Shown: piece by piece, positions 18,376 to 58,736 of the stretch
Layout of the letters: each line of letters opens with the position of its first letter
Numbering within the stretch: the stretch's first letter is position 1
Origin: Patescibacteria group bacterium
GTDB lineage: Bacteria; Patescibacteriota; Patescibacteriia; Magasanikbacterales; GWA2-37-8
DNA: 64,000 nucleotides
Reading direction: 5' to 3'
NCBI GenBank assembly: GCA_041661385.1
Contig: JBAZUP010000001.1
Coordinates: 289,709-353,708 of the forward strand
Made by a program: the position numbers and the translations under genes
The notes under the pieces: generated by a model
The model's input: the letters and a program-made list of their open reading frames with translations, nothing else
Database searches by the model: none
What the model was told of the DNA's origin: nothing

Positions 18376-18439
18376 AGAATCGAAAATCTGGGCTTATTAT
18401 ACTATTTTTCAGCAAAATACTAAAGTAAAATATCATTTT

Positions 18440-18463
18440 AAAAAACCCCAAAACGGGGTAATT
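18440..18463. terminator. hairpin AAAAACCCCaaaaCGGGGTAATTTT
   Basis: Short GC stem flanked by A/T runs, upstream of O-antigen ligase start. Confidence 0.35.
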
Positions 18464-18631
18464 TTAGCCAAATATATTAATTATGGCTATATATCGACCA
18501 CCTTTCAAAAAGCTGAGCGATATATAGCTGCCGACCGTTCAAACACGGGTGCATGAATGGTCGGCAGAGTAATTCTCCCGGACCACTCGTATGGTTAACG
18601 AACGGTCTGGGAAGTTTTCTTCAGTGAAACA

Positions 18632-20353
18632 CTACTGTTGGTAGACGCGTCCACCGTTCCAAGTGGCTCGGTAGTTCGGCACCACATAAACGCACGTGGT
18701 ACCGTTTGGCGCCCACCAGGTCCGCTGAGAACAGCCGGTCAAATCGCCGTTCTCCATCATGGACCGATGATTCCTCGCCGGATCTGAGGTGAGACACTTG
18801 TCAGCTCCGACATAGTAACCACCATCCCATGCGGTGTCGGTGTACACTTGCACACCAACTCCCGTGCGACTGACGCACAACCGGAACTGGTCCGGCGCGC
18901 ACTTGGTAGTACCCTGGATAAAGACTCCAGAGTGACAGTCGAACGCATTTCCAGACTGTGGAGTCTGGTCGATCTCAACATCACCGTTGCAGGTCTTGGT
19001 AGCAGACCAAAGCGGTCCGCAATTCAAGCTCGAGCATTCGGTATGGGCGGTGCAGGTTGCACCGTTGGCCTTGCCGGTACCACCAGCCGTATAGGCGACC
19101 AGATTGATCGTCATCGAGTGGCTGGTAGCGCTCCAAACGCCGGTGACAGTGAGCGGATAGGTAAGCCCCGTCGTACTTGCCGCAAGCGTGTAGGGCACGG
19201 TAACGAGCAGAGTTGAAGTACCGCTTGAATTTGCAACCGTGACGGAAGTCGGGCTGAGGCTGGCAGTAGTACCCGCCGGAGCTCCGGTAACAGTCAGGGC
19301 GACGACCTTGGACGTGGTGTCCGCGGTCGCAATCGTGATGATTGCAGAAACCGAGACGGTTCCTGTCGTCGGAACGGTTACCGACAAAGTCGGTGGACCC
19401 GAGATCGTGAAATCCGTTGTCGGAACCACACAACTCGTACCATTGCACGCGCCGGTCGCGCAGTAAGTACCATTGCCATTTGGCGTGGTACCACATCCGT
19501 TGTTCGGCAGGATCGAAGTCCCGCAAGCAACGGTGTTCGCCGGCGGATAGGTCGGTGTACAACCCGAGACACAGGTGGTGCCGTTGCACGTGCCAGTCGC
19601 ACAGTAGGTACCGGTGCCGTTTGGCACAGTACCACATCCGTTGTTCGGCAGGATCTGAATCCCGCAGTTGACGGACGAAGCCGGCGAATAGATCGGCGTG
19701 CAATTCACCTTCGGCGCACAGGTGCCGTTGGTGCAGGTGTCACTTTCGCAGTTGCTTCCCTGGTGACAGGGCATGCCAACCGCCAAGTCCGTGCGATCGT
19801 AACAGACATTGTTGATGCAATCCTGGCCGAGCAGGCACGACTTGTTGCAGCTTGTCGGCGGAATGCACAATTGGGTAGTGCGGTCGCACTTTCCGCTTGA
19901 GCACTTGTCATCCCCAACTCCGCAGAACGCGTAATCGGGACGACCGACACACCACCCAGACACTCTGCCGGCCTCGAGAGGACAGAGCAACGAAACGCAC
20001 TGGAGTCTCGAGGTGCAAGGCGCACCGTTGAAGAACTGCTCGGAAGGAACACAGAGGTTCGATTCGAGCGGCTGTGGTGCACAGGTCATGGTGTCGCGGC
20101 AGGGCGGGCTGCAGGTCTGCAGGGTGCACTTGCCCACCGTCGCGGTGCCGGTGACGATGCATGTGTTGTTGTCGGCGCACTGGTCCGATCCGGTGCAGTC
20201 TGCACCGATAGGCCTGCCGACGCACTTGCCGTCGGGTCCGCAGGGCAATTCGGAAGAGCACTCCAGGTACTGGTTGCAGGGCTGACCGTTGGGAATCTTC
20301 GGACAACCCGTCAGCATTGCGATCATCATCGCAAACAACGAGAGCTTCCGCAT
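18632..20353 (-). CDS. cysteine-rich repeat lipoprotein (high-GC island)
   Basis: Lipobox MLTGC; ~70 Cys in C-x3-C-x5-6-C-x3-G-x-C type repeats (myxobacterial-style Cys-rich repeat); Thr/Ser-rich Ig-like segment; GC ~62%. Confidence 0.6.
   Translation of the reverse strand: MRKLSLFAMMIAMLTGCPKIPNGQPCNQYLECSSELPCGPDGKCVGRPIGADCTGSDQCADNNTCIVTGTATVGKCTLQTCSPPCRDTMTCAPQPLESNLCVPSEQFFNGAPCTSRLQCVSLLCPLEAGRVSGWCVGRPDYAFCGVGDDKCSSGKCDRTTQLCIPPTSCNKSCLLGQDCINNVCYDRTDLAVGMPCHQGSNCESDTCTNGTCAPKVNCTPIYSPASSVNCGIQILPNNGCGTVPNGTGTYCATGTCNGTTCVSGCTPTYPPANTVACGTSILPNNGCGTTPNGNGTYCATGACNGTSCVVPTTDFTISGPPTLSVTVPTTGTVSVSAIITIATADTTSKVVALTVTGAPAGTTASLSPTSVTVANSSGTSTLLVTVPYTLAASTTGLTYPLTVTGVWSATSHSMTINLVAYTAGGTGKANGATCTAHTECSSLNCGPLWSATKTCNGDVEIDQTPQSGNAFDCHSGVFIQGTTKCAPDQFRLCVSRTGVGVQVYTDTAWDGGYYVGADKCLTSDPARNHRSMMENGDLTGCSQRTWWAPNGTTCVYVVPNYRATWNGGRVYQQ
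19430..19700. repeat. tandem ~138-bp (46-aa) duplication inside cysteine-rich gene
   Basis: Protein unit C.P.Y.PA..V.CG...ILPNNGCGT.PNG.GTYCATG.CNGT.C occurs twice; nearly identical DNA visible. Confidence 0.7.
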
Positions 20354-20568
20354 GGCTGCTCCTTCTCCTCACTTCATGCGAGGAATGGTTCCGGCTTTCA
20401 CATGAAAGTCGGTAATTCTTGTTTCACTTCAGTTTTCAACGAACTTCTTGTTTCTCCTTTTCTAGTCACAAGATTAGTTATGGCTAGAATAAGGTTGCCA
20501 TCAACTCTCGGAAGAGTTGATGGCAATTTGCATAGGCGAACCTATGCGATGAAAAGAGCTACTTGTGG

Positions 20569-21354
20569 CTAGAAGAAGCCACCGGTGACTGTCTCCAGCT
20601 TGTCGTTCGTCCAGGTCTGGAAAGGCCGGGACGGACTGGCATGCTGCCAACCGGTATAGGTACCGGTGGTACCATTCGGCACCGTGAAGGAGCCGGAGGC
20701 TTCAGGACAGCAGATCTGCGAATTCGCAGACACCGACTGACTGTCGACGTTCTTCTTGCCGGCGATGAACTGGTCCCAGCAAGTGAAGACGCTGTTCGTC
20801 GTGGGCGTGGCGCAAAGGATGTACTGCGCCGTTCCGACAACGCAAACGTTGTCGATGCACACGTGACCAGACGTGCAATCCGGGGTGCAGAAGTTTCGAG
20901 CGTAACACACGCCCGAGACGCAGTTCTGGCCCGTGGGACACGGGTTCGAGCTGCTGCACACGTTGTTGTTCGGAGGCGTGGTGCCCGGAGTCTTGCAGAC
21001 TCCGCTGTCGCAGACCAGATTCTTGGTCCCGTCGCAGTCGGCGCTGAAGACGCACTTCTTCCCGACCTCGCAGAGGTTGGGAGGCTCTGCCATCCGGCAA
21101 GACCATCCGCAGTCGACATCCGACTCCGAATAGTCCTGAACGCCGTTGTTGCATCGGGCGACGTCCCAGGTGGTGCAGATGCCCTTCAGCTCCCGCTCGT
21201 TGCCGCAGACCAGGCCGTCGGCGCACTCGTTGCTGTTCAGGGCGCAGGAATCGTGGAACTTCTTCTTCCCGTGCTCGTAGTCCTTCCCGCAGCCGGGGAG
21301 GAGGGTGAACATCGCCACGATGGCGATGGTGAACAACTGCGCGAACTTCTTCAT
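20569..21354 (-). CDS. cysteine-rich secreted lipoprotein (high-GC island)
   Basis: Lipobox LLPGC; repeated C-x-D-G-x-C / CxxGxxC units; GC ~62%. Confidence 0.55.
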   Translation of the reverse strand: MKKFAQLFTIAIVAMFTLLPGCGKDYEHGKKKFHDSCALNSNECADGLVCGNERELKGICTTWDVARCNNGVQDYSESDVDCGWSCRMAEPPNLCEVGKKCVFSADCDGTKNLVCDSGVCKTPGTTPPNNNVCSSSNPCPTGQNCVSGVCYARNFCTPDCTSGHVCIDNVCVVGTAQYILCATPTTNSVFTCWDQFIAGKKNVDSQSVSANSQICCPEASGSFTVPNGTTGTYTGWQHASPSRPFQTWTNDKLETVTGGFF

Positions 21355-21545
21355 GATCGCTCCTTCTCTCCCCTTTAACGGGTGAGATTTTTCCGAGCTT
21401 CCATTATGAAAACCCGGTAATTCTTTTTCCTATCTGAAAATAAATTTCTTTATTCCCAGAAGTGGAGGTCCTTGCGCCTCTTGACGCAAGGACCGATCCG
21501 ATCGATCTTTTAACGCTCGAAAGCGTTAGAAAATACGATTTTGCC

Positions 21546-22607
21546 CTATCGGGACAGGGCAACGTCCGCGGCATTGAAGCCGATTCGGACAATGAAGCTG
21601 CTTCCTGGTGACAGGTATCCGTCCTTCGGGCCCAAATTGTGGGCCCACTCTCCCTCGGCGACGAAAGCGCCGAACTTCAAACGGAGAGTTGCTCCCGGCA
21701 TGCTGGCCGTGAGCTTGTCCATCTCCCATCTTCCGATGCGAGTGAACGACGGACCAATGCCCATCTGAAACTCCCGATCAAGAGCGTTCACGAAGTTGAA
21801 GAGGATCTTCCCCTTCGCTTCGGCTCTGAAGAGCGGGCTGAAATTGCCGAGAGTAAGACGGTCGTGATAAATGACCGCCCCACCACCGGCAATGCCGATG
21901 AGCAACCGATCCCCGAGGATCGGAGGTGAATAGTTCAGCTGAACATCTCCGAGGACAGCGCCATCGGTAATCCATCCCAGCCCGAAGCCGAGCTCGAGAT
22001 AGTTTGACCGCTTCGTGACGATCACCGGAGGCGGTCGAGTGTCGACCACTTCAAGTGGGCCATAGATCCTGCGGCGGGAGTCTGCTGCGGACGCTTCGTC
22101 CGCGGCCTTCTTCCTTGCTTCCTCTTCCTCGCGGATGCGAGCTTCGGAAGCTGCCTTCTCACGAGCGACGACCTCGGCGACCGCCTTCATGTCGGCTTGC
22201 TGCTTGCGGTAGTCGAGCACAGCATGGCGCGCCTGCTCCGGATCGTTGCAAAGCTCTTCCGGGTATTCATACTGCCGGCAGAACTTCCGATTGATTTCAG
22301 TGCGGCGCTTCTCGTTGTCCTGGTTGACCTTCTTCTTGAGTGCCTTGCGGACGCACTTCGGGTCCGCACAGCACTGCGCGCTGACATGAAGACCACCGAG
22401 GGTCTTCTGGCAGGACTTGAGGGCGACCATGTCCTCGGACTCCGGCGTGAGCTCGACCTGAATCTTGTCGGGCATGTGCCTTCCGACGATCTTGTCGATC
22501 TCGGACTGCGAGAGACTGGTGGGTGCCGGTGCCGCCGACTCGGCCATGACGCTACTCGCGAGCGTCATGAAAACGAAAGCAACTGCGAAGCGAACGATGT
22601 TGTTCAT
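21546..22607 (-). CDS. secreted protein with coiled-coil N-region and beta-rich C-domain (possible OM beta-barrel), hypothetical
   Basis: Signal peptide ...VMAES; Cys pairs; Glu/Arg/Lys coiled segment; C-terminal alternating hydrophobic strands ending in an aromatic-type tail. Confidence 0.45.
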   Translation of the reverse strand: MNNIVRFAVAFVFMTLASSVMAESAAPAPTSLSQSEIDKIVGRHMPDKIQVELTPESEDMVALKSCQKTLGGLHVSAQCCADPKCVRKALKKKVNQDNEKRRTEINRKFCRQYEYPEELCNDPEQARHAVLDYRKQQADMKAVAEVVAREKAASEARIREEEEARKKAADEASAADSRRRIYGPLEVVDTRPPPVIVTKRSNYLELGFGLGWITDGAVLGDVQLNYSPPILGDRLLIGIAGGGAVIYHDRLTLGNFSPLFRAEAKGKILFNFVNALDREFQMGIGPSFTRIGRWEMDKLTASMPGATLRLKFGAFVAEGEWAHNLGPKDGYLSPGSSFIVRIGFNAADVALSR

Positions 22608-22623
22608 CTTTTCTCCTCTCCCT

Positions 22624-23310
22624 TTACGGGGTGGTAGTGGTTTCGGGTTGCTTCTGCTTCGAACCGAGACGATTCTTCAATTCCTCTGCAGAGGTGATCG
22701 CGGTCTTTTCCGAGATCTTGATCTGCTCTGCAAGGCAAGCTGCGTTCCAGGCGTTTCGCTCGAGAGCGAATTCATTCGCCTGATCAGCGATCTTCTTCTT
22801 GAGCTCGGCCGTAGCAAAGCTGGATGCCGCACCCATGTCGGGGAACACAGATCTCCCCATCATGAAAGCAAAGACGGTGCAGATGGTACAGACAACCACC
22901 CAAACCCACGGGAACTTCTTCGGCTTCGCATGATGAGACCGAGATGGCTCGTGATGAAAGTGAGCCGGCTCGTCGTGTGGAACGGCGGAGTGATCCGTAT
23001 GAAAACTGGGCTCTTCCTGATGAGTCGTTGGCACTTCCTCACAAAGAGACGTATTGTAAATAACGACAATATCGTCCCAAGCCTTCAGCGCCTTCTGCTT
23101 CATCACCTTGTGATGGTCCTCGGGAATATGAGGGCGTCGCAGGCTATCGAGCGCCGATGTGAGCTCGTTGAAGTGTTCCAGCATCTCCTGCTGATTGACT
23201 TTTTTCGTGAGGAAATCAAGCACGGACTTGACACTTTCGTGATTGGTTTCAATGCCGATCTCTCGGAGCTGGACCAAAAGCGCTGAAGTATATTCGCCTG
23301 GCTTCATCAT
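22624..23310 (-). CDS. single-pass membrane protein (anti-sigma-factor-like topology), hypothetical
   Basis: Cytoplasmic N-domain, His-rich linker, one TM (WVWVVVCTICTVFAFMMG), periplasmic C-domain. Confidence 0.4.
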   Translation of the reverse strand: MMKPGEYTSALLVQLREIGIETNHESVKSVLDFLTKKVNQQEMLEHFNELTSALDSLRRPHIPEDHHKVMKQKALKAWDDIVVIYNTSLCEEVPTTHQEEPSFHTDHSAVPHDEPAHFHHEPSRSHHAKPKKFPWVWVVVCTICTVFAFMMGRSVFPDMGAASSFATAELKKKIADQANEFALERNAWNAACLAEQIKISEKTAITSAEELKNRLGSKQKQPETTTTP

Positions 23311-23340
23311 TTGCTTTCTCCCTAGTTGGTAAAATGAGCT

Positions 23341-23361
23341 CTGTCCTGTAAAACAGGACAG
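23341..23361. promoter_or_regulatory. perfect 9-bp inverted repeat CTGTCCTGT-aaa-ACAGGACAG upstream of 22624..23310 gene
   Basis: Seen directly; lies 30-50 nt upstream of the minus-strand start codon; candidate operator. Confidence 0.3.
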
Positions 23362-23546
23362 TCCAGATATACTAAACAGATTTCTGGAAAGAAAATCGGC
23401 TCAAAGCTGGTTTTCTTCCCTAAAACCTGTACTAAAGTGGCTTGCCTATCCAAAAATACCTTATCACACAGAACTGCTCAGCTTATCATAAATTAGCGAA
23501 AATGTCAAGAGCTTTTTGCAGTCTTTACTCCTATATAGCACAAACT

Positions 23547-26180: not shown

Positions 26181-26639
26181 ATGACAAATTTTGCTGAAAA
26201 TAAAAAAGCCCGGTTTGATTATGAAATTCTTGATACTTATCAAGCGGGAATTTCCCTTACTGGACAAGAAGTTAAGTCCGTTCGTGCCGGTCAAATTAGC
26301 CTGACCGGTACTTTTATTACTTTTCATAATGGAAAAGCAATTTTAACCAACGCCCACATCTCGCCTTACAAGTTTGCGGGACCACTCCCCGATTACGAAC
26401 CTACCCGCAGTCGCACCCTCCTCCTACACAAGCGGGAAATCAATTATCTACGCGGTAAATCCGAGGAACAAGGCTTGACAATAGTGCCTCTTCGGGTGTA
26501 TAGTAGTAACCGTCTTATAAAGCTAGAAATAGCAGTAGCTCGCGGAAAGCACCGTTTTGACAAGAGAGAAACGATAAAAAAACGTGATTTAAACCGAGAG
26601 CTAAAAAAAGATTCAAAATACGGGAGTGACCGGCTTTGA
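26181..26639 (+). CDS. smpB: SsrA-binding protein SmpB
   Basis: ARFDYEILDTYQAGISLTGQEVKSVRAG N-terminus and basic C-tail. Confidence 0.9.
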   Translation: MTNFAENKKARFDYEILDTYQAGISLTGQEVKSVRAGQISLTGTFITFHNGKAILTNAHISPYKFAGPLPDYEPTRSRTLLLHKREINYLRGKSEEQGLTIVPLRVYSSNRLIKLEIAVARGKHRFDKRETIKKRDLNRELKKDSKYGSDRL

Positions 26640-27011
26640 CAGGGAACGTTTAATTCACTTGCCTACCGAGGTGGCCTCCATAGCCTCGTAAATACCTGGG
26701 GGCGACATAATAAGTGCAAACTTGTTATCAAAAGTAAAGGCATCTGTAGCTAACGCTTTCAGCACCTTTGCTCCGGCAATGGCCTAAGGGCCGTCGCCCA
26801 TCATCCGCGCCGGGACCCGACCAGTGCGAAATGGTGTCACTATCCGGGTGTAGTCTATTAGCGGCGGAATGACCGCTAACTGACGAAATACTTCAAACTA
26901 ACCTGTTTCACTTTCGCTTTCTTACGAGAGACAGGCGAAACAACAAGAAAGCTATGTAGGTAGATGGTGCGTTAAGCATCTTCTGGACGCGAGTTCAATT
27001 CTCGCCACTTC
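26622..27011 (+). ncRNA. ssrA: tmRNA (ssrA), 5' end overlapping last ~18 nt of smpB
   Basis: 5' GGGAGUGACCGGCUUUGACAGGGA matches tmRNA consensus GGGGNUG....GGNUUCGACGGG; 3' T-arm GCGAG-TTCAATT-CTCGC then CACTTCC+A pairs 7/7 (one GU) with 5' GGGAGTG; candidate tag ORF ending ...APAMA-TAA at 26786. Confidence 0.7.
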
Positions 27012-27024
27012 CACAAGAAAAATT

Positions 27025-28325: not shown

Positions 28326-28343
28326 CTTTGCACAATTCACCTG

Positions 28344-28419
28344 GGTCGGTAGTTCAACTGGTTAGAGCACTGCCCTGTCACGGCAGAAGTTGCGGGTTCG
28401 AGTCCCGTCCGACCCGCCA
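28344..28419 (+). tRNA. tRNA-Asp (GTC), CCA encoded
   Basis: Cloverleaf folded by hand: acceptor GGGTCGG/CCGACCC, anticodon loop CTGTCAC, T-loop TTCGAGT. Confidence 0.9.
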
Positions 28420-37469: not shown

Positions 37470-38258
37470 CTAATACCTGACCAACCGCAAATACCAGCTA
37501 ATAATTTCGTTACCCCAAAGCAGAACCACAAATGTCCCAATCGATAAAAAAGTTCCAAACGGAATGGCCGAAGACATTTCTTTTTTCTTCAAAGCAATCA
37601 ACGCTAAACTAAAAACCGCACCAAAAATATAACTGATAAATAACGCCGCGAGCCCCGCTTGCCACCCCAGCCAAAAACCCATCATAGCACCAAGCATTAT
37701 ATCTCCCCCGCCGATCCATTTACCTTTTGAAACCAAAAACTGAAACAGAAAAAAACCGCCGCAAATTAACGCGCCAAAAACTAAATTATACGGGTCGTAT
37801 ACTAAGTATTTTATATTTATAAACAACCCGACAGTAGAACCGAGTAGAATTACACTCGGTAAAATGAGTTGATATTTTGCGTCGTAAACAAACACTACAA
37901 TAAGCAGAGCGGAAAAAAATAGATCGCGAAACGATTGAATAGCAGAAAGATTGAAGTCAACCGAATGTCCAACAACCAAGGTAAAAATTACACCGGTAGC
38001 AAGCTCCACTAAAAAATAAGATTTCGGAATCGGCTTTCCACAAGTACGGCATTTACCTTTTAAAAATAAAAAACTAAATAAAGGAATATTTTCAAACCAA
38101 CTAAGTTTTCGTTCGCAATGAACACACATACTGCGCCCGCCAAAACAATACTTTTTCTCATGTATTCTCCACATCCACGAATTCAAATAACTACCAAGCA
38201 AAAGGCCTAAAACAAAAATAAACGAATAAACTACCGGCGAATAAATATCAATAAACAT
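37470..38258 (-). CDS. pilD: type IV prepilin peptidase (A24 family)
   Basis: N-terminal Zn-binding CxxC...CxxC, DUF/peptidase A24 TM core. Confidence 0.8.
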   Translation of the reverse strand: MFIDIYSPVVYSFIFVLGLLLGSYLNSWMWRIHEKKYCFGGRSMCVHCERKLSWFENIPLFSFLFLKGKCRTCGKPIPKSYFLVELATGVIFTLVVGHSVDFNLSAIQSFRDLFFSALLIVVFVYDAKYQLILPSVILLGSTVGLFINIKYLVYDPYNLVFGALICGGFFLFQFLVSKGKWIGGGDIMLGAMMGFWLGWQAGLAALFISYIFGAVFSLALIALKKKEMSSAIPFGTFLSIGTFVVLLWGNEIISWYLRLVRY

Positions 38259-38347: not shown

Positions 38348-38812
38348 TTAGTCGGTAATTCCTGATTGCGATAATGTAACTCCACCAGACAAGCCATTAA
38401 CTGTACCTTCCAATGTGGCGGTGACAGTGTATGTGCTGGAAGCTGCATTATAGGTATAAACGAGAGCTCCAGTATCATTTGGATCGCCTGGAACGCTACC
38501 CATATAAGCGTTAGCACAACCTGTTGCGTGCCAACCGGCGTTATCTAAACAAGCATAGTTGCCTGTTGCTGTAGTCGCTGGGCTTCGCAGAGGTCCTAAC
38601 ACTACGTTTGAACCTGCTGGGTAAGCATTTTGATCGGTGTAGTATAATTCCAAAGCAGTTTGAATTTGCTTAAGATCTGACATGCGTTTAGCGTCTCTAG
38701 CCTTCACACGAGCGTTGCCGAGGGCAACTACCGCGAGAGTGGACAAAAGACCGATAATGGCGATGACGACCAAAAGTTCGATCAAAGTAAAACCTTTCTT
38801 ATTCATTTTCAT
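38348..38812 (-). CDS. type IV pilin-like protein (prepilin N-methylation motif)
   Basis: [19 protein letters not shown] class III signal peptide; start MKMNKK preceded by GGAGGTGA RBS (ORF track extends to 38902). Confidence 0.75.
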
Positions 38813-38852
38813 ATTGTCACCTCCCTTCCAAAATTTGTATTCTTCATATTTT

Positions 38853-39323
38853 TTATGGGGAAATTCCAGAACCGATTCCTGAAGGCGAAAGATGTATCGC
38901 ACCCGACAAACCGTTTACCTGACCTTCAAGTGAAGCTGTAACATTAAATGAGCTTGAAGCCGCCGTGTAAGTATAAACCAAGCTGCCGCTATCATTTGGG
39001 TCGGCTGGCACCACTCCCAAATAAGGATCTGTACAAGCAGTTACGACATGAAAACCGGAATGATCTAAACAAGCATAGGACCCAGTCGCTGTTCCTCCGG
39101 CCTTTGCTGTTCCCAAAATAATTCCATTTCCAACCGGGTAAGCATTTTGATCACCATAATATAGTTCCAGGGCGGTTTGGATTTGTTTTAAATCCGACAT
39201 TCGTTTGGCATCCCGAGCTTTCAATCGCGCATTACCCATTGCAACGGTTATAATTGTTGATAATAAACCAATGATAGCGATTACGACTAGAAGTTCGATC
39301 AAAGTAAAGCCGCGTCTATTCAT
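38853..39323 (-). CDS. type IV pilin-like protein, tandem paralog
   Basis: [19 protein letters not shown]; first ~60 aa nearly identical to neighbour. Confidence 0.8.
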
Positions 39324-47621: not shown

Positions 47622-47996
47622 TCAGCACCTTATGAAGGGTTTTCGAACAATCGAAACCCGGAAGCAGTTACTACGGAAATGACCCACAGAAACCCCATAA
47701 TCGGGGCAATTCCGCACCACCGAATCGTTCATCGGTGCAAATTCTCGAGCAATTGTTACGACCAAGTTGAAGATGCATTCCTGAAAAGCCTCAATCTCAT
47801 TTTCTGAGAAAACCCGGCACTTCAAGTACCAATCGATTTCGGCAAGCCTGAAGAGGCTCGCCCGACCGACCGCTGCTCGAATAATGCTTTTCGAATGGCT
47901 CTCGCTGTAAGTTGCGAGGTGAGTGAGAATTTCTGGCGACTGGACAAGAATCGCATCTCCCGTTGGCTTGTGCATCAGAACGTTCTCGAAAGGCAT
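47622..47996 (-). CDS. hypothetical protein in mid-GC (~48%) patch
   Basis: ORF only; composition differs from flanks. Confidence 0.35.
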   Translation of the reverse strand: MPFENVLMHKPTGDAILVQSPEILTHLATYSESHSKSIIRAAVGRASLFRLAEIDWYLKCRVFSENEIEAFQECIFNLVVTIAREFAPMNDSVVRNCPDYGVSVGHFRSNCFRVSIVRKPFIRC

Positions 47997-50518: not shown

Positions 50519-50835
50519 ACTCCGAGATCGCCCGCCTGCAACGCTTTGCGTAGCAATGCGGGCAGGTCTAACGGCATATATGTTTTACACTTACGTTCTT
50601 AAAAGCCAAAAAGATAACGAATTGTATATTGGATGGACCGATGACTTAAAAAGTAGAATAAAAAAACACAATGATGGCTTGGTAGAATCTACAAAAAATC
50701 GGAAGCCTTTAATATTGGTTTATTATGAAGCTTGTTTAAATAAAGATGCGGCAATAGCAAGGGAAAAATCGCTCAAAACTGGCTTCGGCAGAGCATATTT
50801 AAAAAATAGATTGAACGACAAACACTCCGAGATCG
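50519..50835. repeat. 12-bp direct repeat ACTCCGAGATCG (50519-50530 and 50824-50835) flanking GIY-YIG gene; second copy is the 5' end of tRNA-Gln
   Basis: Seen directly. Confidence 0.7.
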
Positions 50836-50840
50836 TCTAA
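50580..50840 (+). CDS. stand-alone GIY-YIG nuclease domain protein
   Basis: FYTYVL (GIY) ... LYIGWT (YIG) ... R, E, N catalytic positions; start MFYTY at 50580; overlaps tRNA-Gln 5' end by 15 nt. Confidence 0.7.
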   Translation: MFYTYVLKSQKDNELYIGWTDDLKSRIKKHNDGLVESTKNRKPLILVYYEACLNKDAAIAREKSLKTGFGRAYLKNRLNDKHSEIV

Positions 50841-50896
50841 TGGCAGGACAACGGACTCTGAATCCGTTTATCTTGGTTCGAATCCAAGTCTCGGAA
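50826..50896 (+). tRNA. tRNA-Gln (CTG)
   Basis: Acceptor TCCGAGA/TCTCGGA, anticodon stem ACGGA/TCCGT, loop CTCTGAA, T-loop TTCGAAT; no encoded CCA. Confidence 0.8.
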
Positions 50897-55357: not shown

Positions 55358-56197
55358 ATGGCAACTATAATAAATGGCAAGGAGATTGCCGCGAAAATTG
55401 AAAAATCCGTCCGAAATCGCGTGGACGATTTGAAACGAAAAGGCAAGGTAGTCCGCCTTGATGTTATTTTAGTCGGCGACAATCAAGCCAGCGAAACATA
55501 TGTAAAACGCAAAAGCGAAGCCGCCGACCGCGTCGGAATCGATTTTACTTTACACCGCCTCCCGGCCGACGTAACCGCTCGGGCAATTATTAAAAAAATA
55601 AAAGATGTTCAAAAAAAGTCCTCCGGACTTTTAATTCAGCTCCCCCTTCCTGAAAAACTTTACACCCCGGATATTTTGAATGCCATTGACCCAAATGTTG
55701 ATGTCGACTGCCTGACTCACGAAAACCTTGGCCGCCTCGTAATGAAAAGCCACTTTGTCGCCCCTCCAACTCCCGGCGCCGCTCTCGCAATCCTTAAAGA
55801 ATTAAATATAAACTTATCCGGAAAAGATATCACTATTATCGGCACCGGCGCTTTGGTTGGTAAGCCGCTCGCTATTATGCTCGTAAACGAAGGCGCGAGC
55901 GTGACCACTTGCAATAGTCGCACCAAAAATTTAAAAGAAAAATGTCTTTCCGCCGATATCATTGTTACCGGTGTTGGTAAAAAAGATATCGTCCGAGGCG
56001 ACATGGTAAAACCGGGAGCAATAGTAATTGATACCGGATTTGTGTACGAAAATGGCAAACTAATGGGTGACGTAAATTTTGACGAAGTAAGTAAAGTAGC
56101 CGGCCACCTCACCCCCACCCCCGGCGGCGTTGGCCCGATTACCGTAGCGCAGCTGCTCCAAAATACCATTATCTGCGCCGAAAAAAAGTTTGAATAA
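55358..56197 (+). CDS. folD: bifunctional methylenetetrahydrofolate dehydrogenase/cyclohydrolase
   Basis: IINGKEIAAKI..., YVKRK active-site Lys, GxGxxVGxP Rossmann. Confidence 0.9.
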   Translation: MATIINGKEIAAKIEKSVRNRVDDLKRKGKVVRLDVILVGDNQASETYVKRKSEAADRVGIDFTLHRLPADVTARAIIKKIKDVQKKSSGLLIQLPLPEKLYTPDILNAIDPNVDVDCLTHENLGRLVMKSHFVAPPTPGAALAILKELNINLSGKDITIIGTGALVGKPLAIMLVNEGASVTTCNSRTKNLKEKCLSADIIVTGVGKKDIVRGDMVKPGAIVIDTGFVYENGKLMGDVNFDEVSKVAGHLTPTPGGVGPITVAQLLQNTIICAEKKFE

Positions 56198-56217
56198 ACC
56201 TATTAAATATCGACCTG

Positions 56218-56245
56218 AACAGCATTGACAAATGCTGTTTTTTGT
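56218..56245 (+). promoter_or_regulatory. hairpin AACAGCATT-GACA-AATGCTGTT + T6 (copy 1) with TTGACA in the loop
   Basis: Acts as folD terminator and may carry the -35 of the cassette promoter. Confidence 0.45.
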
Positions 56246-56314
56246 ATTAAGGTTGAGGCCGCTACGGCCTTGCCGTATTTGCTCATTTTACCCACTATTC
56301 TCAGCGGAGGAATC

Positions 56315-56902
56315 ATGGAAAATGTTATTCGCCTGATTAACGACCATTACATCCTCGGCGGCACAATCGTCGCCATCCTCATCATCCTTTTCTTGGTATC
56401 AATCGTGATTCTCTATGGCTGGATCAAATATCGTGAATTCGTAAAGGAAATCAACTGGCGATTTTTCGCTTCCAAGGTCCGCATTCAGGCCGAGCTTCAT
56501 CGCCTGGTGACCGACGAAACCCATTTCACACCAAACAGCCGGAATAAGATTCTGGACGAGATTTGGTCCAACGAATTCGACTGTTGGGGCCGGATCTACC
56601 TAGAATCGGACTCGAAATGCTATGACTTGCCGCGTTCGATTTGGCAGATCATGCGCTGGCTCATGCTGCGTCGCATGCCCTCAACTGCAGAATTTGCGAG
56701 AGCGCTCGACGACGGTGAAACTGCTGGCCTTGCGGTTAGCGAAAAATACCTGATCCTAATGAATAATCGCAATCTTCCCAAACGGGTTTATCACTCCGGG
56801 CAATGGGAATTTGATGTTGCTGTCCAAAAGATGTTTCCAAAACTCACCGCCGAGCTAATCCTCCTTCAGGATCTGCTCATGAGGAAACGCTTCTGCGAAT
56901 GA
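56315..56902 (+). CDS. membrane-anchored hypothetical protein, paralog A of tandem cassette
   Basis: Start MENVIRL after GGAGG RBS; N-terminal TM; conserved RIQAELHRL...LPRSIWQIMRWLMLRR. Confidence 0.45.
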   Translation: MENVIRLINDHYILGGTIVAILIILFLVSIVILYGWIKYREFVKEINWRFFASKVRIQAELHRLVTDETHFTPNSRNKILDEIWSNEFDCWGRIYLESDSKCYDLPRSIWQIMRWLMLRRMPSTAEFARALDDGETAGLAVSEKYLILMNNRNLPKRVYHSGQWEFDVAVQKMFPKLTAELILLQDLLMRKRFCE

Positions 56903-56915
56903 AAATAGTGGGAAT

Positions 56916-56951
56916 AGCCAGCGCCAAAAGCGCTGGCTTTCCTATTTTGAT
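56916..56951 (+). terminator. terminator AGCCAGCGC-caaaa-GCGCTGGCT + TTTCCTATTTT (copy 1)
   Basis: Perfect 9-bp stem. Confidence 0.55.
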
Positions 56952-56981
56952 AACCTCACTTTTATTAAAAATACTGACCTA

Positions 56982-57008
56982 AACAGCATTGACAAATGCT
57001 GTTTTTTA
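56982..57008 (+). promoter_or_regulatory. hairpin AACAGCATT-GACA-AATGCTGTT + T6 (copy 2)
   Basis: Identical to copy 1. Confidence 0.45.
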
Positions 57009-57082
57009 TAATAAGGTTTAGTCCGCTACGGCCTCGCCGTAATTTGCTCATTTTACCCACCTTTCTCAACCCGGAGGAAATT

Positions 57083-57649
57083 ATGGGAACGCTCTCCCTT
57101 ATAAAAGTTGTCGTGATCTCTTTCACGATCGTTATAACCATTGGTTTTCTCTGCATATTTGTGCGATGGCTAAGCTTTCGTCGCGCCCTGTCGGAAATTG
57201 AATGGCAGATTTTTGCCGTCAAAATTCGCATTCAGGCCGAACTCGAACGCTTTATTCTTCAGGATGTTAACCTGATACCAATCTGTCGGGAAAAACTTTT
57301 GGACGAAATTTACAACAACAAGTTTAACGACTGGGATAAAACCTATCTCGAACCAGACTCGCTGACTTGCGAACTGCCCCGGTCCATCTGGCTCGTCATG
57401 AAGTGGCTCATGCTCCGCCAAAACAAAGCAACCTCAGAATTTGCCAGAAAAATCGACCAAGGCAAAGACGCCACCCTTCCGTCCGGAAATAAATTCCAGT
57501 TGTTTATGAACAGTTATAGTATTCCCAATTGGATATATTTCGCCCAAAAAAGCGAACTGGATTACAGGGTTCAGCAGCTGTTTCCAAAGATAACCGACGA
57601 CTTGGTCCGCTACCGAAGACTGGTAATGGCAAAAAACATTTGCTTATGA
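57083..57649 (+). CDS. membrane-anchored hypothetical protein, paralog B of tandem cassette
   Basis: Start MGTLSLI after GGAGG RBS; ~50% aa identity to paralog A. Confidence 0.45.
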   Translation: MGTLSLIKVVVISFTIVITIGFLCIFVRWLSFRRALSEIEWQIFAVKIRIQAELERFILQDVNLIPICREKLLDEIYNNKFNDWDKTYLEPDSLTCELPRSIWLVMKWLMLRQNKATSEFARKIDQGKDATLPSGNKFQLFMNSYSIPNWIYFAQKSELDYRVQQLFPKITDDLVRYRRLVMAKNICL

Positions 57650-57652
57650 GAA

Positions 57653-57686
57653 AGATGGGAATAGCCAGCGCCAAACGCGCTGGCTT
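57653..57686 (+). terminator. terminator AGCCAGCGC-caaac-GCGCTGGCT + TTTCCATTTT (copy 2)
   Basis: Perfect 9-bp stem; overlaps promoter TTGACA (57694) of dus. Confidence 0.55.
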
Positions 57687-57731
57687 TCCATTTTGACAAA
57701 CCACACTTTTTCCGTCATACTAGCACCCGAT

Positions 57732-58736
57732 ATGATATCTGGATTTTGGAAAAAATTAAAAAAACCCATCTTTGCCATTGCCCCCATGAGCAATGTTACT
57801 GACCAAGCTTTTCGCCTGCTTATCGCAAAATACGGCAAACCAGATGTAATGTGGACTGAGTTTGTTTCTTGCGACGGATTACAATCGGAAGGAAGAAAAA
57901 AACTGCTTATTGATTTAAAATACGATAAATCTGAACGACCGATTGTTGCCCAGATTTTCGGATCAAATCCGGAAAATTGCTATAAAACCGCATTACTTAT
58001 TGATGAACTGGGTTTCGATGGAATTGATATAAACATGGGCTGCCCTGACCGCAACGTGGAAAAGCAAGGCGCGGGCTCTGCCATGATAAAGAACCCCAAA
58101 CTAGCGCAACAAGTAATACTCGAAACTATTCGCGGCGCCGGAAAAATGCCGGTCTCGGTAAAAACTCGTATCGGCTATACGAAAAATGAATTAAAAACTT
58201 GGCTTCCTTATATTTTGGAAACTGGTCCGGCCGCTGTAACAATACACGCCCGCACCCGTAAAGAGATGTCCAAAGTTCCCGCCCGTTGGGAACACGTCGC
58301 CGAAGCGGTCACAATTCGTGATAACTTTGACAGTTCAAAAAATAAAACTTTAATTTTGGGAAATGGCGATATTAAAGACATTGTCGACGGTTATGAAAAA
58401 GCCAAACAAACTGGTGCCGACGGAGTTATGATCGGGCGAGGAATCTTTGGCAACCCGTGGTGCTTTTCAGACATAGACAATTTACGTAAAGGAAAAAAAA
58501 TTAAAACTGAAATTTCGGTTGAAAAACGGCTGAAAGCGATGATTGAACACGCTGAATATTTTGAAAAAATCTTGGGAAAAGAAAAAAACTTTGAAATCAT
58601 GAAAAAACATTTCAAAGCTTATGCGAATGGTTTTGACGGCGCAAAAGAATTACGGATCAGGTTAATGACTGAATCGGAAAATAGTAAAGAAGTAAAAAAA
58701 ATTGTTCAAGAATTTCTAAAGAAAATCCCGACATAA
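57732..58736 (+). CDS. dus: tRNA-dihydrouridine synthase (DusB-like)
   Basis: IFAIAPMSNVTD, GFDGIDINMGCP, FMN/TIM barrel; start MISGF at 57732. Confidence 0.85.
   Translation: MISGFWKKLKKPIFAIAPMSNVTDQAFRLLIAKYGKPDVMWTEFVSCDGLQSEGRKKLLIDLKYDKSERPIVAQIFGSNPENCYKTALLIDELGFDGIDINMGCPDRNVEKQGAGSAMIKNPKLAQQVILETIRGAGKMPVSVKTRIGYTKNELKTWLPYILETGPAAVTIHARTRKEMSKVPARWEHVAEAVTIRDNFDSSKNKTLILGNGDIKDIVDGYEKAKQTGADGVMIGRGIFGNPWCFSDIDNLRKGKKIKTEISVEKRLKAMIEHAEYFEKILGKEKNFEIMKKHFKAYANGFDGAKELRIRLMTESENSKEVKKIVQEFLKKIPT

Follow-up and report, generated by a model that had tools for sequence, protein, structure and literature searches.

An orphan gene duplicated in tandem between folD and dus in Patescibacteria, with flanking control signals more conserved than the coding sequence

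Why do two adjacent gene copies resemble each other far more closely outside their coding regions than within them? The question is raised by a pair of single-gene units in a 64-kb window (the whole stretch of DNA analyzed here) from a Patescibacteria MAG. The layout first described for this locus holds for both units: two neighbouring transcription units, A (56201-56963) and B (56964-57727), have the same order of parts and are framed by two further genes.

55358-56197, plus strand: folD coding region, upstream neighbour (Pfam THF_DHG_CYH domains on identical contigs)
56315-56902, plus strand: coding region A, 195 aa, predicted N-terminal membrane helix and helical domain, orphan (NCBI: hypothetical protein WC725_01780, Patescibacteria MAG)
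57083-57649, plus strand: coding region B (188 aa), paralogous to A, with 41-42% protein identity to it
57732-58736, plus strand: dus coding region, downstream neighbour (Pfam Dus)

Pairwise alignment of the two units confirms an inverted conservation, in which the flanks are more conserved than the coding regions. The stretch that begins with the upstream hairpin and runs to the ATG aligns over 101 columns, of which 88 match (87%), 9 hold substitutions and 4 hold gaps, and the entire 3' flank is 83% identical across 69 columns, its terminator core reaching 32/33 (97%), against a mean identity of about 57% in coding DNA, where 30-nt windows range from 47 to 73%. The proteins had been estimated to be about 50% identical; they are indeed divergent, and the measured figure is the lower one given above. 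The A-B repeat corresponds to a simple tandem duplication of about 762 bp, with similarity running from directly 3' of the folD stop codon into the spacer of the dus promoter. At the junction, similarity to 57693-57710 stops, and the sequence from 56962 onward begins to resemble that from 56201 onward. A pair of pilin-like tandem paralogues in the same window (38.3-39.3 kb) served as a control and, unlike A and B, displays the usual paralogue pattern, with 75-80% identity between coding repeats and no repeat found in the flanks. The A-B pair itself recurs at 99.9-100% identity in four assemblies, which come from different samples; since the three further contigs on which protein A is found match the window at 99.9-100%, they provide no comparative signal.

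The flank motifs are not generic within the 64-kb window. The upstream hairpin, AACAGCATT-GACA-AATGCTGTT followed by T6, occurs exactly twice (56218-56243 and 56982-57007), when shuffled sequences lead us to expect none, and the terminator core GGGAATAGCCAGCGCCAAANGCGCTGGCTTTCC likewise has exactly two copies (56910-56942 and 57657-57689). The half-site AACAGCATT has no copies in the window beyond the two hairpins, and this confinement led us to reject an uptake-signal-like repeat. A motif scan of viral, metagenome and genome collections gave matches in L011, L012 and L014 that look like chance, as they fall inside coding regions or form a GC-rich phage terminator.

Each unit begins with this hairpin, which overlaps a putative promoter.

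56218-56243, plus strand: hairpin 1A and T6, with a 9-bp stem and GACA loop; predicted folD intrinsic terminator, whose loop and 3' arm hold the -35 box of unit A
56225-56253, plus strand: putative promoter of unit A, -35 TTGACA (56225-56230), 17-nt spacer, -10 TAAGGT (56248-56253), supported by in-register conservation
56982-57007, plus strand: hairpin 1B and T6, duplicate of the folD terminator with all 26 nt as in 1A
56989-57017, plus strand: putative promoter of unit B, -35 TTGACA (56989-56994), 17-nt spacer, -10 TAAGGT (57012-57017), from sequence and family comparison

The upstream hairpin had been assigned to the unit that follows it. It is present as described, but it is first of all the terminator of folD. 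We compared it in the other loci of the gene family, L004 to L007. In L004 the stem carries a compensatory change from A-T to G-C, and in L005 it is replaced by a different stem, again enclosing TTGACA; the conserved feature is therefore the structure with its T-run, that is, a terminator. These same changes do not bear out the suggestion that the hairpin acts as an operator. TTGAC, which is invariant, keeps its register with the conserved T-run and TA..(G)T across the six family loci, and the spacer was counted as 17 nt in A, B and L004 to L007. A sigma-70-type promoter is thus predicted before each unit, which would place the transcription start; a consensus promoter scan missed the promoters of A and B because TAAGGT matches only 3/6 positions. 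A near-identical hairpin module is also found in an unrelated, AT-rich lineage, in which the 22-nt palindrome is kept identical. Beside it lies a small ORF that, by eye only, looks like the N-terminus of a transposase.

The 3' flanks combine a second terminator with the promoter of dus or its remnant.

56916-56949, plus strand: predicted intrinsic terminator of A, AGCCAGCGC-CAAAA-GCGCTGGCT then TTCCTATTTTG
56947-56975, plus strand: degenerate dus promoter copy, TTGATA-17-AATACT, which marks unit A's 3' end, with the duplication junction at about 56960-56965
57663-57696, plus strand: predicted intrinsic terminator of B
57693-57721, plus strand: putative dus promoter, TTGACA-17-CATACT, overlapping the tail of terminator B

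Intrinsic terminator sites were predicted at 56217-56240, 56916-56938, 56981-57004 and 57663-57685. The hairpins have the appearance expected of such terminators, with a G+C-rich stem-loop and an adjoining T-run downstream of a stop codon. Folding z-scores are -5.0 and -5.7, and the 3'-UTR before the terminator measures about 13 nt. A related terminator stem, GCCAGCAC/GTGCTGGC, is present in L005 with a compensatory change, whereas that of L004 has a different sequence. Within the dus promoter, TTTTGACAAA and CATACT are conserved in L004.

Between promoter and start codon, the leaders of A and B (55-59 nt from the predicted transcription start) carry a hairpin, a conserved block and a strong ribosome binding site; the block recurs elsewhere in the window.

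56263-56277, plus strand: 5'-end hairpin of leader A, UACGGC-CUU-GCCGUA, in the minimum-energy and centroid folds
56281-56294, plus strand: leader block GCTCATTTTACCCA of A, identical in B
56306-56310, plus strand: Shine-Dalgarno GGAGG of A, read from the sequence, 4 nt before the ATG at 56315
57027-57041, plus strand: 5'-end hairpin of leader B, as in A with a change in the loop only
57046-57059, plus strand: leader block GCTCATTTTACCCA of B, identical in A
57073-57077, plus strand: Shine-Dalgarno GGAGG of B, read from the sequence
23326-23344, minus strand: third copy of the leader block, GCTCATTTTACCAACTA, matching leader A at 18/19 positions

L004 and L005 have other hairpins at the same leader position. 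The block, which may be written GCTCATTT(T)ACCCA, is kept in a species with near-saturated synonymous sites, and L004 matches it at 13/14 positions with a 1-nt deletion. The block, also given as GCTCATTTTACC or GCUCAUUUUACCCA, recurs before an unrelated gene of the same genome: the third copy follows a hairpin (23341-23361) and stands 16 nt before the ATG of a 228-aa gene on the minus strand (22624-23310), whose protein is unrelated to the A/B family. A coding role for the leader was rejected: both leaders are open in the frame of their gene, yet indels of 1-2 nt between A and B shift that frame, so that leader conservation operates at the nucleotide level. An Rfam scan had been proposed for the leader; it gave no match for this region when the whole window was scanned at gathering thresholds (Rfam 15), and at E-values up to 10 on 56150-57780 only sub-threshold noise. 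Taken alone, the leader folds no better than shuffled sequences (z of -0.8 to -1.0). The idea of a functional leader RNA or operator under selection therefore survives in part. The flanks are functional and selected, as supported by the promoter in six loci and by the block in L004 and before an unrelated gene, and they represent ordinary expression signals; no known RNA family was found, and the operator reading is not supported.

The ends of each mRNA are complementary. A segment of the leader can pair with the region of the stop codon to form what we call a closing helix, whose arms make up 13-bp imperfect inverted repeats around each coding region.

56291-56303, plus strand: 5' arm of the predicted closing helix of A, CCCACTATTCTCA, with 12/13 positions pairing with 56900-56912
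56900-56912, plus strand: 3' arm of the predicted closing helix of A, TGAAAATAGTGGG, stop codon inside
57056-57068, plus strand: 5' arm of the predicted closing helix of B, CCCACCTTTCTCA, with 12/13 positions pairing with 57647-57659
57647-57659, plus strand: 3' arm of the predicted closing helix of B, TGAGAAAGATGGG, stop codon inside

The helix is present in the minimum-energy and centroid folds, and its pair probabilities in the full-length mRNA ensemble are 0.79-0.99 for A and 0.73-0.99 for B, whatever start site is assumed. Leader-to-tail duplexes of -16.2 kcal/mol (A) and -17.7 kcal/mol (B) are the strongest when compared with 57 other genes of the window (mean -6.5, sd 3.1), and folding z-scores of the whole mRNA are -4.8 and -6.5, respectively, versus -0.06 for folD. 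At two helix positions both partners differ between A and B, pairing being kept through compensatory changes. Furthermore, arms that are complementary but unrelated in sequence occupy similar places in L004, L005 and L006, the 3' arm starting within 8 nt of the stop codon and the 5' arm lying 9-44 nt before the start. For arm pairing, Fisher's combined test gives p = 7e-5 over six loci and 0.002 without B, with no helix in L007 and one in L004 that is not individually significant, and cognate pairings rank 3rd of 720 permutations against non-cognate ones. The Shine-Dalgarno stays free in A, B and L006, where 2-5 nt separate it from the end of the helix upstream; only in L004 does the helix touch it. 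The complementarity of the mRNA ends is established in silico, and from it we infer what the helix may do. The two ends probably pair into a closed loop adjoining the terminator, which would shield the mRNA from ribonucleases, by analogy with hbs of B. subtilis. As the 3' arm contains the stop codon, translation termination must open the helix: a terminating ribosome would have to melt it, and the fate of the mRNA would be tied to translation.

The protein family has six members, always beside dus, and after folD wherever the upstream gene is visible. Sequence comparison describes its gene as encoding a lineage-restricted, very fast-evolving and putatively membrane-anchored protein: identity between the window species and L004 is 37%, compared to 88% for FolD and for Dus. 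The main domain of A and B is predicted to be cytoplasmic. No significant sequence or fold match was obtained for them in Pfam, NCBIfam, PHROGs, PADLOC or PDB, and no matches indicate a phage or plasmid origin of the locus. Large searches, over 5.8 billion sequences and over 1.84 billion representatives, yielded no member beyond the six, and no protein 50-90% identical to A or B. GC3 is 0.55-0.60 in the family genes and 0.37-0.46 in their neighbours. A 217-aa JGI gene call for B is probably wrong, as it begins within the hairpin, upstream of the predicted transcript.

How old is the duplication? A and B differ with pS 0.67, dS about 1.7 and dN 0.50, and match at 13 of 30 fourfold sites. Where the amino acid is the same, A and B also use the same codon in 49% of cases; for folD and dus, compared between the window and L004, the value is 57-58%. 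This makes the split of the A and B coding regions about as old as that of the two species. With synonymous sites saturated, a recent duplication followed by fast protein evolution under positive selection is rejected. The flanks depart from this pattern. Paralogous flanks are 83-87% identical (terminator core 97%), whereas orthologous flanks of the window and L004 reach 65-66% (5') and 56-61% (3'), synonymous divergence being equal or greater for A-B; this calibration is on L004 as the one comparator, short flanks of about 60% identity align uncertainly, and L005 keeps a similar terminator. Hairpin 1 (26 nt) is unchanged between A and B and differs at four positions between the window and L004; over 18 nt, the terminator stems of A and B do not differ at all, and the promoter spacers, nearly identical in A and B, are changed in L004.

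On balance, we lean towards an old tandem duplication, of about 762 bp, of a complete single-gene unit whose control signals have been kept alike by selection, probably aided by gene conversion. An ancestral event would have copied the stretch from the folD stop codon to the dus promoter spacer, giving each copy a folD terminator with the -35 box in its loop, a -10 box, the leader hairpin, GCUCAUUUUACCCA, the pairing arms and a terminator. The coding regions would then have drifted at the pace of this gene between species, while the flanks would have stayed alike because nearly all of the flank is working signal. Gene conversion over short tracts, acting between the neighbouring copies, most likely contributed to their similarity as well; alternatively, co-evolution with the same trans-acting factors may have had this effect. 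That the flanks were partly homogenised by conversion is plausible from the one orthologous comparison available. Purifying selection alone, acting on signal-dense flanks possibly bound by shared lineage-specific trans factors, is a possible but rather doubtful account. It agrees with the exact fall of identity at start and stop codons, a sharp drop that suits selection at least as well as conversion, and with a leader block that is conserved across species and common to an unrelated gene. The more distant L005 keeps a window-like terminator, which indicates that this element evolves slowly even without conversion. Similarly, the compensated arm changes indicate that the flanks have had independent histories, and these two pairs, with the 9 substitutions and 4 gap columns, imply that any conversion is not recent. 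Against selection as the sole cause, positions constrained only in structure or spacing (hairpin 1, the terminator stems, whose L004 counterpart is different, and the promoter spacers) are nearly the same in both units and yet have changed in L004, whose synonymous divergence is similar, and hairpin 1B is perfectly kept even though unit A has its own terminator, which makes 1B redundant as one.

Three further readings were weighed. The duplication could be recent, one coding region having later been swapped for a divergent allele through the conserved flanks. Divergence about 10 times lower in the flanks than at synonymous sites, the sharp change of identity at the coding boundaries and the raised GC3, which could reflect recombination or foreign origin, are all in keeping with such a cassette-style exchange; we nevertheless judge it decidedly improbable, as the very large protein collections contain no other alleles, the same A-B pair recurs in all four assemblies, the nearest other species shares identical runs of only 11-12 nt, below what homologous recombination needs, and A and B are mutually closest (42% versus 37% to L004). 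Of the two processes initially evoked for the flanks, gene conversion stays plausible, paralogous flanks being far more alike than orthologous ones, and cassette exchange does not. An integron-like or mobile cassette array, or a phase-variable family with a recombinase acting on the flanks or on the bracketing inverted repeats, is the least credible reading and has scarcely any probability, despite the conserved flanks and variable cores, those 13-bp repeats and the near-identical hairpin module by a transposase-like ORF (seen by eye only) in the AT-rich lineage. Integrons are recognized by an IntI-type tyrosine recombinase with attI and a Pc promoter, and by promoterless cassettes, whose attC site is an imperfect palindrome of 57-141 nt with R''/L''-L'/R' boxes and a GTTRRRY core. 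Here, Pfam on all genes from 43.4 to 64 kb identifies no recombinase gene (CorA, a VirD4-like ATPase, DnaX, a C39-like peptidase, a glyoxalase, a methyltransferase, an fn3 protein, FolD, Dus, DUF8128, SecDF and SecA are found), leaving no integrase, invertase or transposase within about 12 kb. The 3' elements are 22-23 nt hairpins with perfect 9-bp stems, 4-5 nt loops and T-runs, followed by GTTTTTT or TTTCC in place of GTTRRRY, and resemble no attC site. Moreover, A and B each carry a promoter and a terminator of their own, the folD-dus position is syntenic in relatives and the four assemblies show a single orientation. The bracketing repeats differ between species, stay complementary and use sense-strand G-U pairs, which points to RNA pairing and not to a recombinase site. 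The likeness to integrons or variable cassettes drawn in the initial annotation is thereby dismissed. Very improbable too is a leader that senses a ligand or a protein, as a riboswitch or attenuator, with the hairpin as a repressor operator. The overlap of the palindrome with the -35 box, the leader block common to three genes and the identical palindrome in another lineage speak for it; Rfam, empty even at the permissive E-value, the unremarkable folding of the leader alone, the lack of a terminator/antiterminator alternative within it and a palindrome that covaries in L004 and is not conserved in sequence in L005 to L007 speak against it.

Several known systems resemble parts of this locus. 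Variable lipoprotein families of Mycoplasma (vsp, vlp, vsa) have highly conserved 5' regions and, like A and B, combine near-identical upstream non-coding sequence with divergent coding sequence and a homopolymer tract in the promoter spacer. Here, by contrast, there are two copies, the conserved part stops before any signal peptide, the short T6 tract does not vary across four assemblies, a cytoplasmic main domain is predicted and no recombinase lies nearby. With integron cassettes, A and B share adjacent units, a variable core and a conserved, hairpin-forming 3' element; they differ in having no integrase near the locus, no attC architecture or core sites, promoters of their own, a fixed syntenic place between housekeeping genes and hairpins that are plain terminators. 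Concerted evolution of tandem paralogues by gene conversion is a general phenomenon, in which coding sequence is usually homogenised too, whereas in A and B the flanks alone are alike. Near-identical promoters are also reused before different genes (Matus-Garcia et al. 2012, PMC3488235; Nijveen et al. 2012, PMC3575422). As in these phenomena, non-coding control regions of one genome resemble each other more than do the genes behind them, a leader module is common to an unrelated gene and a terminator-promoter module to another lineage; the present case differs in comprising two or three copies with no mobile element attached.

For the closing helix, the nearest parallel is the hbs mRNA of B. 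subtilis, in which a long-range interaction of 14 bp linking 5'- and 3'-UTR modulates cleavage by RNase Y (Braun, Durand and Condon 2017, PMC5737220). Both are short single-gene mRNAs with a structured leader, a strong Shine-Dalgarno and a helix of about 13-14 bp joining the leader to the post-coding region beside the terminator, and by analogy a role in mRNA protection, with stability coupled to translation, may be proposed for A and B. However, hbs encodes a nucleoid protein and our units an orphan membrane protein; in addition, the stop codon lies within their 3' arm, and their helix is predicted by computation in a Patescibacteria MAG. In icaR of S. aureus, a UCCCCUG motif of the 3'-UTR pairs with the Shine-Dalgarno region, blocks initiation and makes an RNase III substrate (Ruiz de los Mozos et al. 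2013, PMC3868564). The intramolecular pairing of both mRNA ends near the ribosome binding site is common to icaR and to our units. However, the A/B helix has no anti-Shine-Dalgarno motif and, in A, B and L006, spares the Shine-Dalgarno that it touches in L004, and the 3'-UTR before the terminator is far shorter than in the icaR class (>100 nt).

More speculatively, A, B and at least one unrelated gene (22624-23310) may form a small, lineage-specific post-transcriptional regulon marked by the 5'-leader hairpin and the motif GCUCAUUUUACC. In the mRNAs of the family, the helix joining leader and stop codon would be opened by each terminating ribosome, coupling mRNA stability or re-initiation to translation termination, and co-evolution with a factor, together with gene conversion, would keep the flanks identical. 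We hold this extension unlikely. To our knowledge, an arrangement with a leader-stop codon helix opened by the terminating ribosome has not been described previously.

This analysis replaces an integron-like or cassette-exchange lead with a duplicated transcription unit whose control signals have outlasted its coding sequence. The compensatory changes, and the independent arms in relatives, make the pairing of mRNA ends worth testing; if confirmed, this Patescibacteria candidate would join the very few known bacterial 5'/3'-UTR interactions (hbs, icaR). The shared leader motif may provide a handle on post-transcriptional control in a group without genetics. The locus offers a natural example of a fast-evolving orphan gene whose regulatory and RNA-structural flanks are far more constrained than its protein, and of how tandem copies can hold their flanks in step.

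A and B, the two adjacent units of common layout (56201-56963 and 56964-57727), resemble each other from directly after the folD stop codon (similarity starts at ~56201/56962) to within the promoter spacer of dus (~56963/57710), which makes the repeat a plain ~762-bp tandem duplication that took the whole transcription unit along. Each unit has a 26-nt hairpin with T6 (AACAGCATTGACAAATGCTGTTTTTT, at 56218 and 56982; hairpins 1A and 1B) and a 33-nt terminator block (56910 and 57657). The initial annotation had treated both as marks of the repeat, and indeed these are their sole copies in the 64-kb window, with 0 matches in shuffles. Pairwise alignment also bore out its claim that the flanks are better conserved than the coding DNA: A and B agree in 88 of 101 aligned columns from hairpin to start codon (87%), in 32 of 33 in the terminator core (97%) and in 83% over the entire 3' flank, against a mean of ~57% in coding DNA (range 47-73% in 30-nt windows). 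The proteins (195 aa for A, 188 aa for B) are strongly diverged, as had been proposed, at 41-42% identity rather than ~50%. Synonymous sites are essentially saturated (pS 0.67, dS ~1.7, 13 of 30 fourfold sites identical), and the pattern is therefore not that of a young duplication with rapid protein change under positive selection. A control tandem pair in the same window, two type IV pilin-like genes at 38.3-39.3 kb (38348-39323, minus strand), shows the ordinary pattern: the coding repeats are alike (75-80% identical), and no repeat was detected in the flanks. A prepilin peptidase-like gene (37470-38258) adjoins this pair.

Protein A corresponds to hypothetical protein WC725_01780 of a Patescibacteria MAG (779-kb contig), and three further assemblies, from different samples, are 99.9-100% identical to the window across 11-12 kb. 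The neighbours are housekeeping genes, with folD upstream and dus, DUF8128, secF, secD and secA downstream; farther upstream are genes for a methyltransferase, a glyoxalase, a C39-like peptidase, DnaX and a VirD4-like ATPase. Annotation of the genes around the locus shows no recombinase. A profile search of 1.84 billion representatives returned six family members only, two word-indexed searches found no others, and no match in sequence libraries names the family. Four relatives (loci L004-L007, available on short contigs) carry the gene in single copy next to folD, dus or both: it follows folD in L004, L005 and L007 and precedes dus in L004, L005 and L006. In L004, the closest relative, FolD and Dus are 88% identical to those of the window (dS 1.2-1.5), whereas the family protein shows only 37% identity to A or to B; the gene is thus very fast-evolving everywhere. 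A confident structure model (pLDDT 90) has a long N-terminal helix (residues 2-67) that includes the membrane segment, followed by a helical domain with one beta hairpin; this domain is probably cytoplasmic, from the positive-inside rule applied by eye. GC3 of the family genes exceeds that of their neighbours in every species with visible neighbours (window, L004, L005, L007), with 0.55-0.60 in the window versus 0.37-0.46 for folD and dus; selection for mRNA structure, expression level or recombination could account for this.

When the upstream regions of six loci are aligned, TTGAC is invariant and is accompanied by a T-run, with TA..(G)T as the -10 box, spaced 17 nt from the -35. The predicted signals of the duplicated region are:

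56225-56230 (-35, TTGACA) and 56248-56253 (-10, TAAGGT): promoter of A, from the six-locus alignment
56989-56994 (-35) and 57012-57017 (-10): promoter of B, from the same alignment
57693-57721: dus promoter, TTGACA-17-CATACT
56947-56975: decayed copy of the dus promoter, TTGATA-17-AATACT
56263-56277 and 57027-57041: hairpins at the 5' end of leaders A and B

The hairpin around the -35 box begins 20 nt past the folD stop codon and ends in T6, which makes it the predicted intrinsic terminator of folD. The initial annotation had considered an operator. In L004, however, the stem shows an A-T to G-C replacement that preserves pairing, as well as a wobble pair, L005 encloses TTGACA in another stem (ATAGGGC/GCCCTAT), and L006 has a separate terminator ahead of TTGACA. 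What persists is structure rather than sequence, which favours a terminator over an operator. One of the public calls for B (JGI/ENA, 217 aa) has its initial ATG within this hairpin (window 56996-57082), ahead of where transcription is predicted to start; the 188-aa call by NCBI, preceded by a GGAGG site, is likely the correct one.

The predicted leaders of A and B (55-59 nt) both contain the block GCTCATTTTACCCA and the Shine-Dalgarno sequence GGAGG. Folded alone they are no better than shuffles (z -0.8 to -1.0), and the Rfam scan was negative at the locus, so that a known regulatory RNA was rejected. However, two stretches of the same mRNA, one immediately before the Shine-Dalgarno sequence and one beginning with the stop codon, are complementary and form a putative closing helix:

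56291-56303 (CCCACTATTCTCA) with 56900-56912 (TGAAAATAGTGGG): 5' and 3' arms in A, 12 of 13 positions paired
57056-57068 (CCCACCTTTCTCA) with 57647-57659 (TGAGAAAGATGGG): 5' and 3' arms in B, 12 of 13 positions paired

At two positions both arms have changed between A and B with pairing kept (T-A to C-G; A-T to T-A). The helix is present in the minimum-energy and centroid folds of both full-length mRNAs, with pair probabilities of 0.73-0.99 for any assumed start site. Arms of unrelated sequence are found in L005 (TTTAGACAA/TTGTCTAAA, pair probability ~1), L006 (CTCTTACGT/ACGTAAGAG, 0.66) and L004 (two alternative registers); in all of these the 3' arm begins no more than 8 nt from the stop codon, with the 5' arm 9-44 nt ahead of the start. 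No closing helix was found in L007. Per-locus p values against shuffles are 0.018, 0.0015, 0.20, 0.011, 0.041 and 0.84 (Fisher's combined p 7e-5; 0.002 without B), and only 2 of 720 permutations outdo the cognate leader-tail pairs. Among 58 window genes tested alike (mean duplex energy -6.5 kcal/mol, sd 3.1), gene A is the lowest, at -16.2 kcal/mol; B was mis-started in this set, and its -17.7 kcal/mol comes from a separate test. The full-length transcripts are folded much more stably than shuffled sequences (z -4.8 for A, -6.5 for B; folD -0.06), the coding parts alone being mildly structured (-1.6 and -1.8; L004 -2.8). Two features speak for RNA pairing rather than for a DNA recombination site: sense-strand G-U pairs (L004, L006) and arm sequences that vary from species to species. 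The second strongest duplex of the 58 (-15.9 kcal/mol) belongs to a small orphan gene (47622-47996, minus strand; 124 aa, no Pfam match), whose leader GTCAGCA and stop-codon region TGCTGAC show 7-bp perfect complementarity.

Why, then, did the flanks stay alike? In part their likeness is ordinary, arising from fast coding evolution and signal-packed flanks; the more distant L005 has a terminator that resembles the one in the window and carries a compensated change (GCCAGCAC/GTGCTGGC), so this element evolves slowly in any case. Identity falls off precisely at the start and stop codons, which also fits well with selection. However, paralogous flanks are far closer than orthologous ones at equal or greater synonymous divergence, L004 being the one usable comparator: codons at identical amino acids are 49% identical between A and B and 57-58% between the window and L004 (folD, dus), whereas the latter share only 65-66% of the 5' flank and 56-61% of the 3' flank. 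The excess lies at positions whose only expected role is in structure or spacing. Hairpin 1 is unchanged over its 26 nt between A and B and has 4 changes in L004, the terminator stem has 0 in 18 and is of other sequence in L004, and the leader 5' hairpin and promoter spacers are near-identical in A and B and altered in L004. Hairpin 1B, moreover, is redundant as a terminator, unit A having its own. These observations lead us to favour selection acting together with short-tract gene conversion between the neighbouring copies or, instead of conversion, flanks co-evolving with shared trans factors. Of the selection or conversion initially proposed, selection on the flanks is thus retained, with conversion as its favoured partner on the strength of one comparator. 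Any conversion would not be recent, since the flanks hold 9 substitutions, 4 gap columns and two compensated pairs.

The likeness drawn earlier to integrons or variable cassettes did not survive: the annotated genes around the locus include no integrase, and neither attC architecture nor an attC core is present; both units carry promoters of their own, and the locus keeps a fixed, syntenic place. Allele exchange was rejected because very large collections hold no other alleles and all four assemblies are 99.9-100% identical. An uptake-signal-like repeat was discarded, the half-site being confined to the two hairpins in the window, as was a phage or plasmid origin, with no matches.

The leader block recurs on the minus strand as GCTCATTTTACCAACTA (23326-23344; 18 of 19 positions match leader A), against a chance expectation we estimate at ~3e-5 for the window. 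Here again a hairpin lies ahead (23326-23361, minus strand, hairpin and block), and the block lies 16 nt ahead of the start of a 228-aa gene with no relation to the family (22624-23310), within its 5' UTR. This recurrence, together with conservation in L004, singles the block out as a functional element of leaders; it suggests a motif common to several leaders and perhaps a small regulon. The 228-aa gene lies at the edge of an island of 50-57% G+C (18000-23400; genome 38-42%), whose genes (18632-20353 and 20569-21354 on the minus strand, for instance) code for proteins that are rich in cysteine and apparently secreted; the island may be horizontally acquired. Also in the window, the Rfam scan detected tmRNA and two tRNA genes (26622-27016, 28343-28416, 50826-50896), unrelated to the duplicated units.

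An identical 22-nt palindrome, with flanking similarity (TTAATATCGGAAAAACAGCATTGACAAATGCTGTTTTT versus TAAATATCGACCTGAACAGCATTGACAAATGCTGTTTTT in the window), occurs in an AT-rich lineage of MAGs labelled 'uncultured Gammaproteobacteria':

L008, 1560-1619
L009, 1-60
L010, 4448-4520, minus strand
L013, 1-90

There it follows groES-groEL and a gene for a 166-aa membrane protein, and faces a 113-aa ORF that is transposase N-terminal-like by eye only; its copies in L010 and L013 make up a perfect TTGACA-17-TATAAT promoter. We estimate ~0.07 chance matches in the whole collection. The terminator-promoter module is common to two unrelated lineages.

Bacterial long-range mRNA folding is known to act across hundreds of nucleotides (PMC12697547). 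The closing helix, here predicted from sequence, has its nearest counterpart in Bacillus subtilis hbs, where a 14-bp 5'/3'-UTR interaction modulates cleavage by RNase Y (PMC5737220). The resemblance is weaker to Staphylococcus aureus icaR, in which the 3' UTR masks the Shine-Dalgarno sequence (PMC3868564), here left free; in contrast to both, the 3' arm of the helix takes in the stop codon. Control modules common to several genes recall promoter reuse (PMC3488235, PMC3575422). The locus is a new example, with computational support, of known kinds of things, not a new kind of system. Its most testable new element is the closing helix, predicted to be coupled to termination, in combination with the leader motif that recurs before the 228-aa gene.
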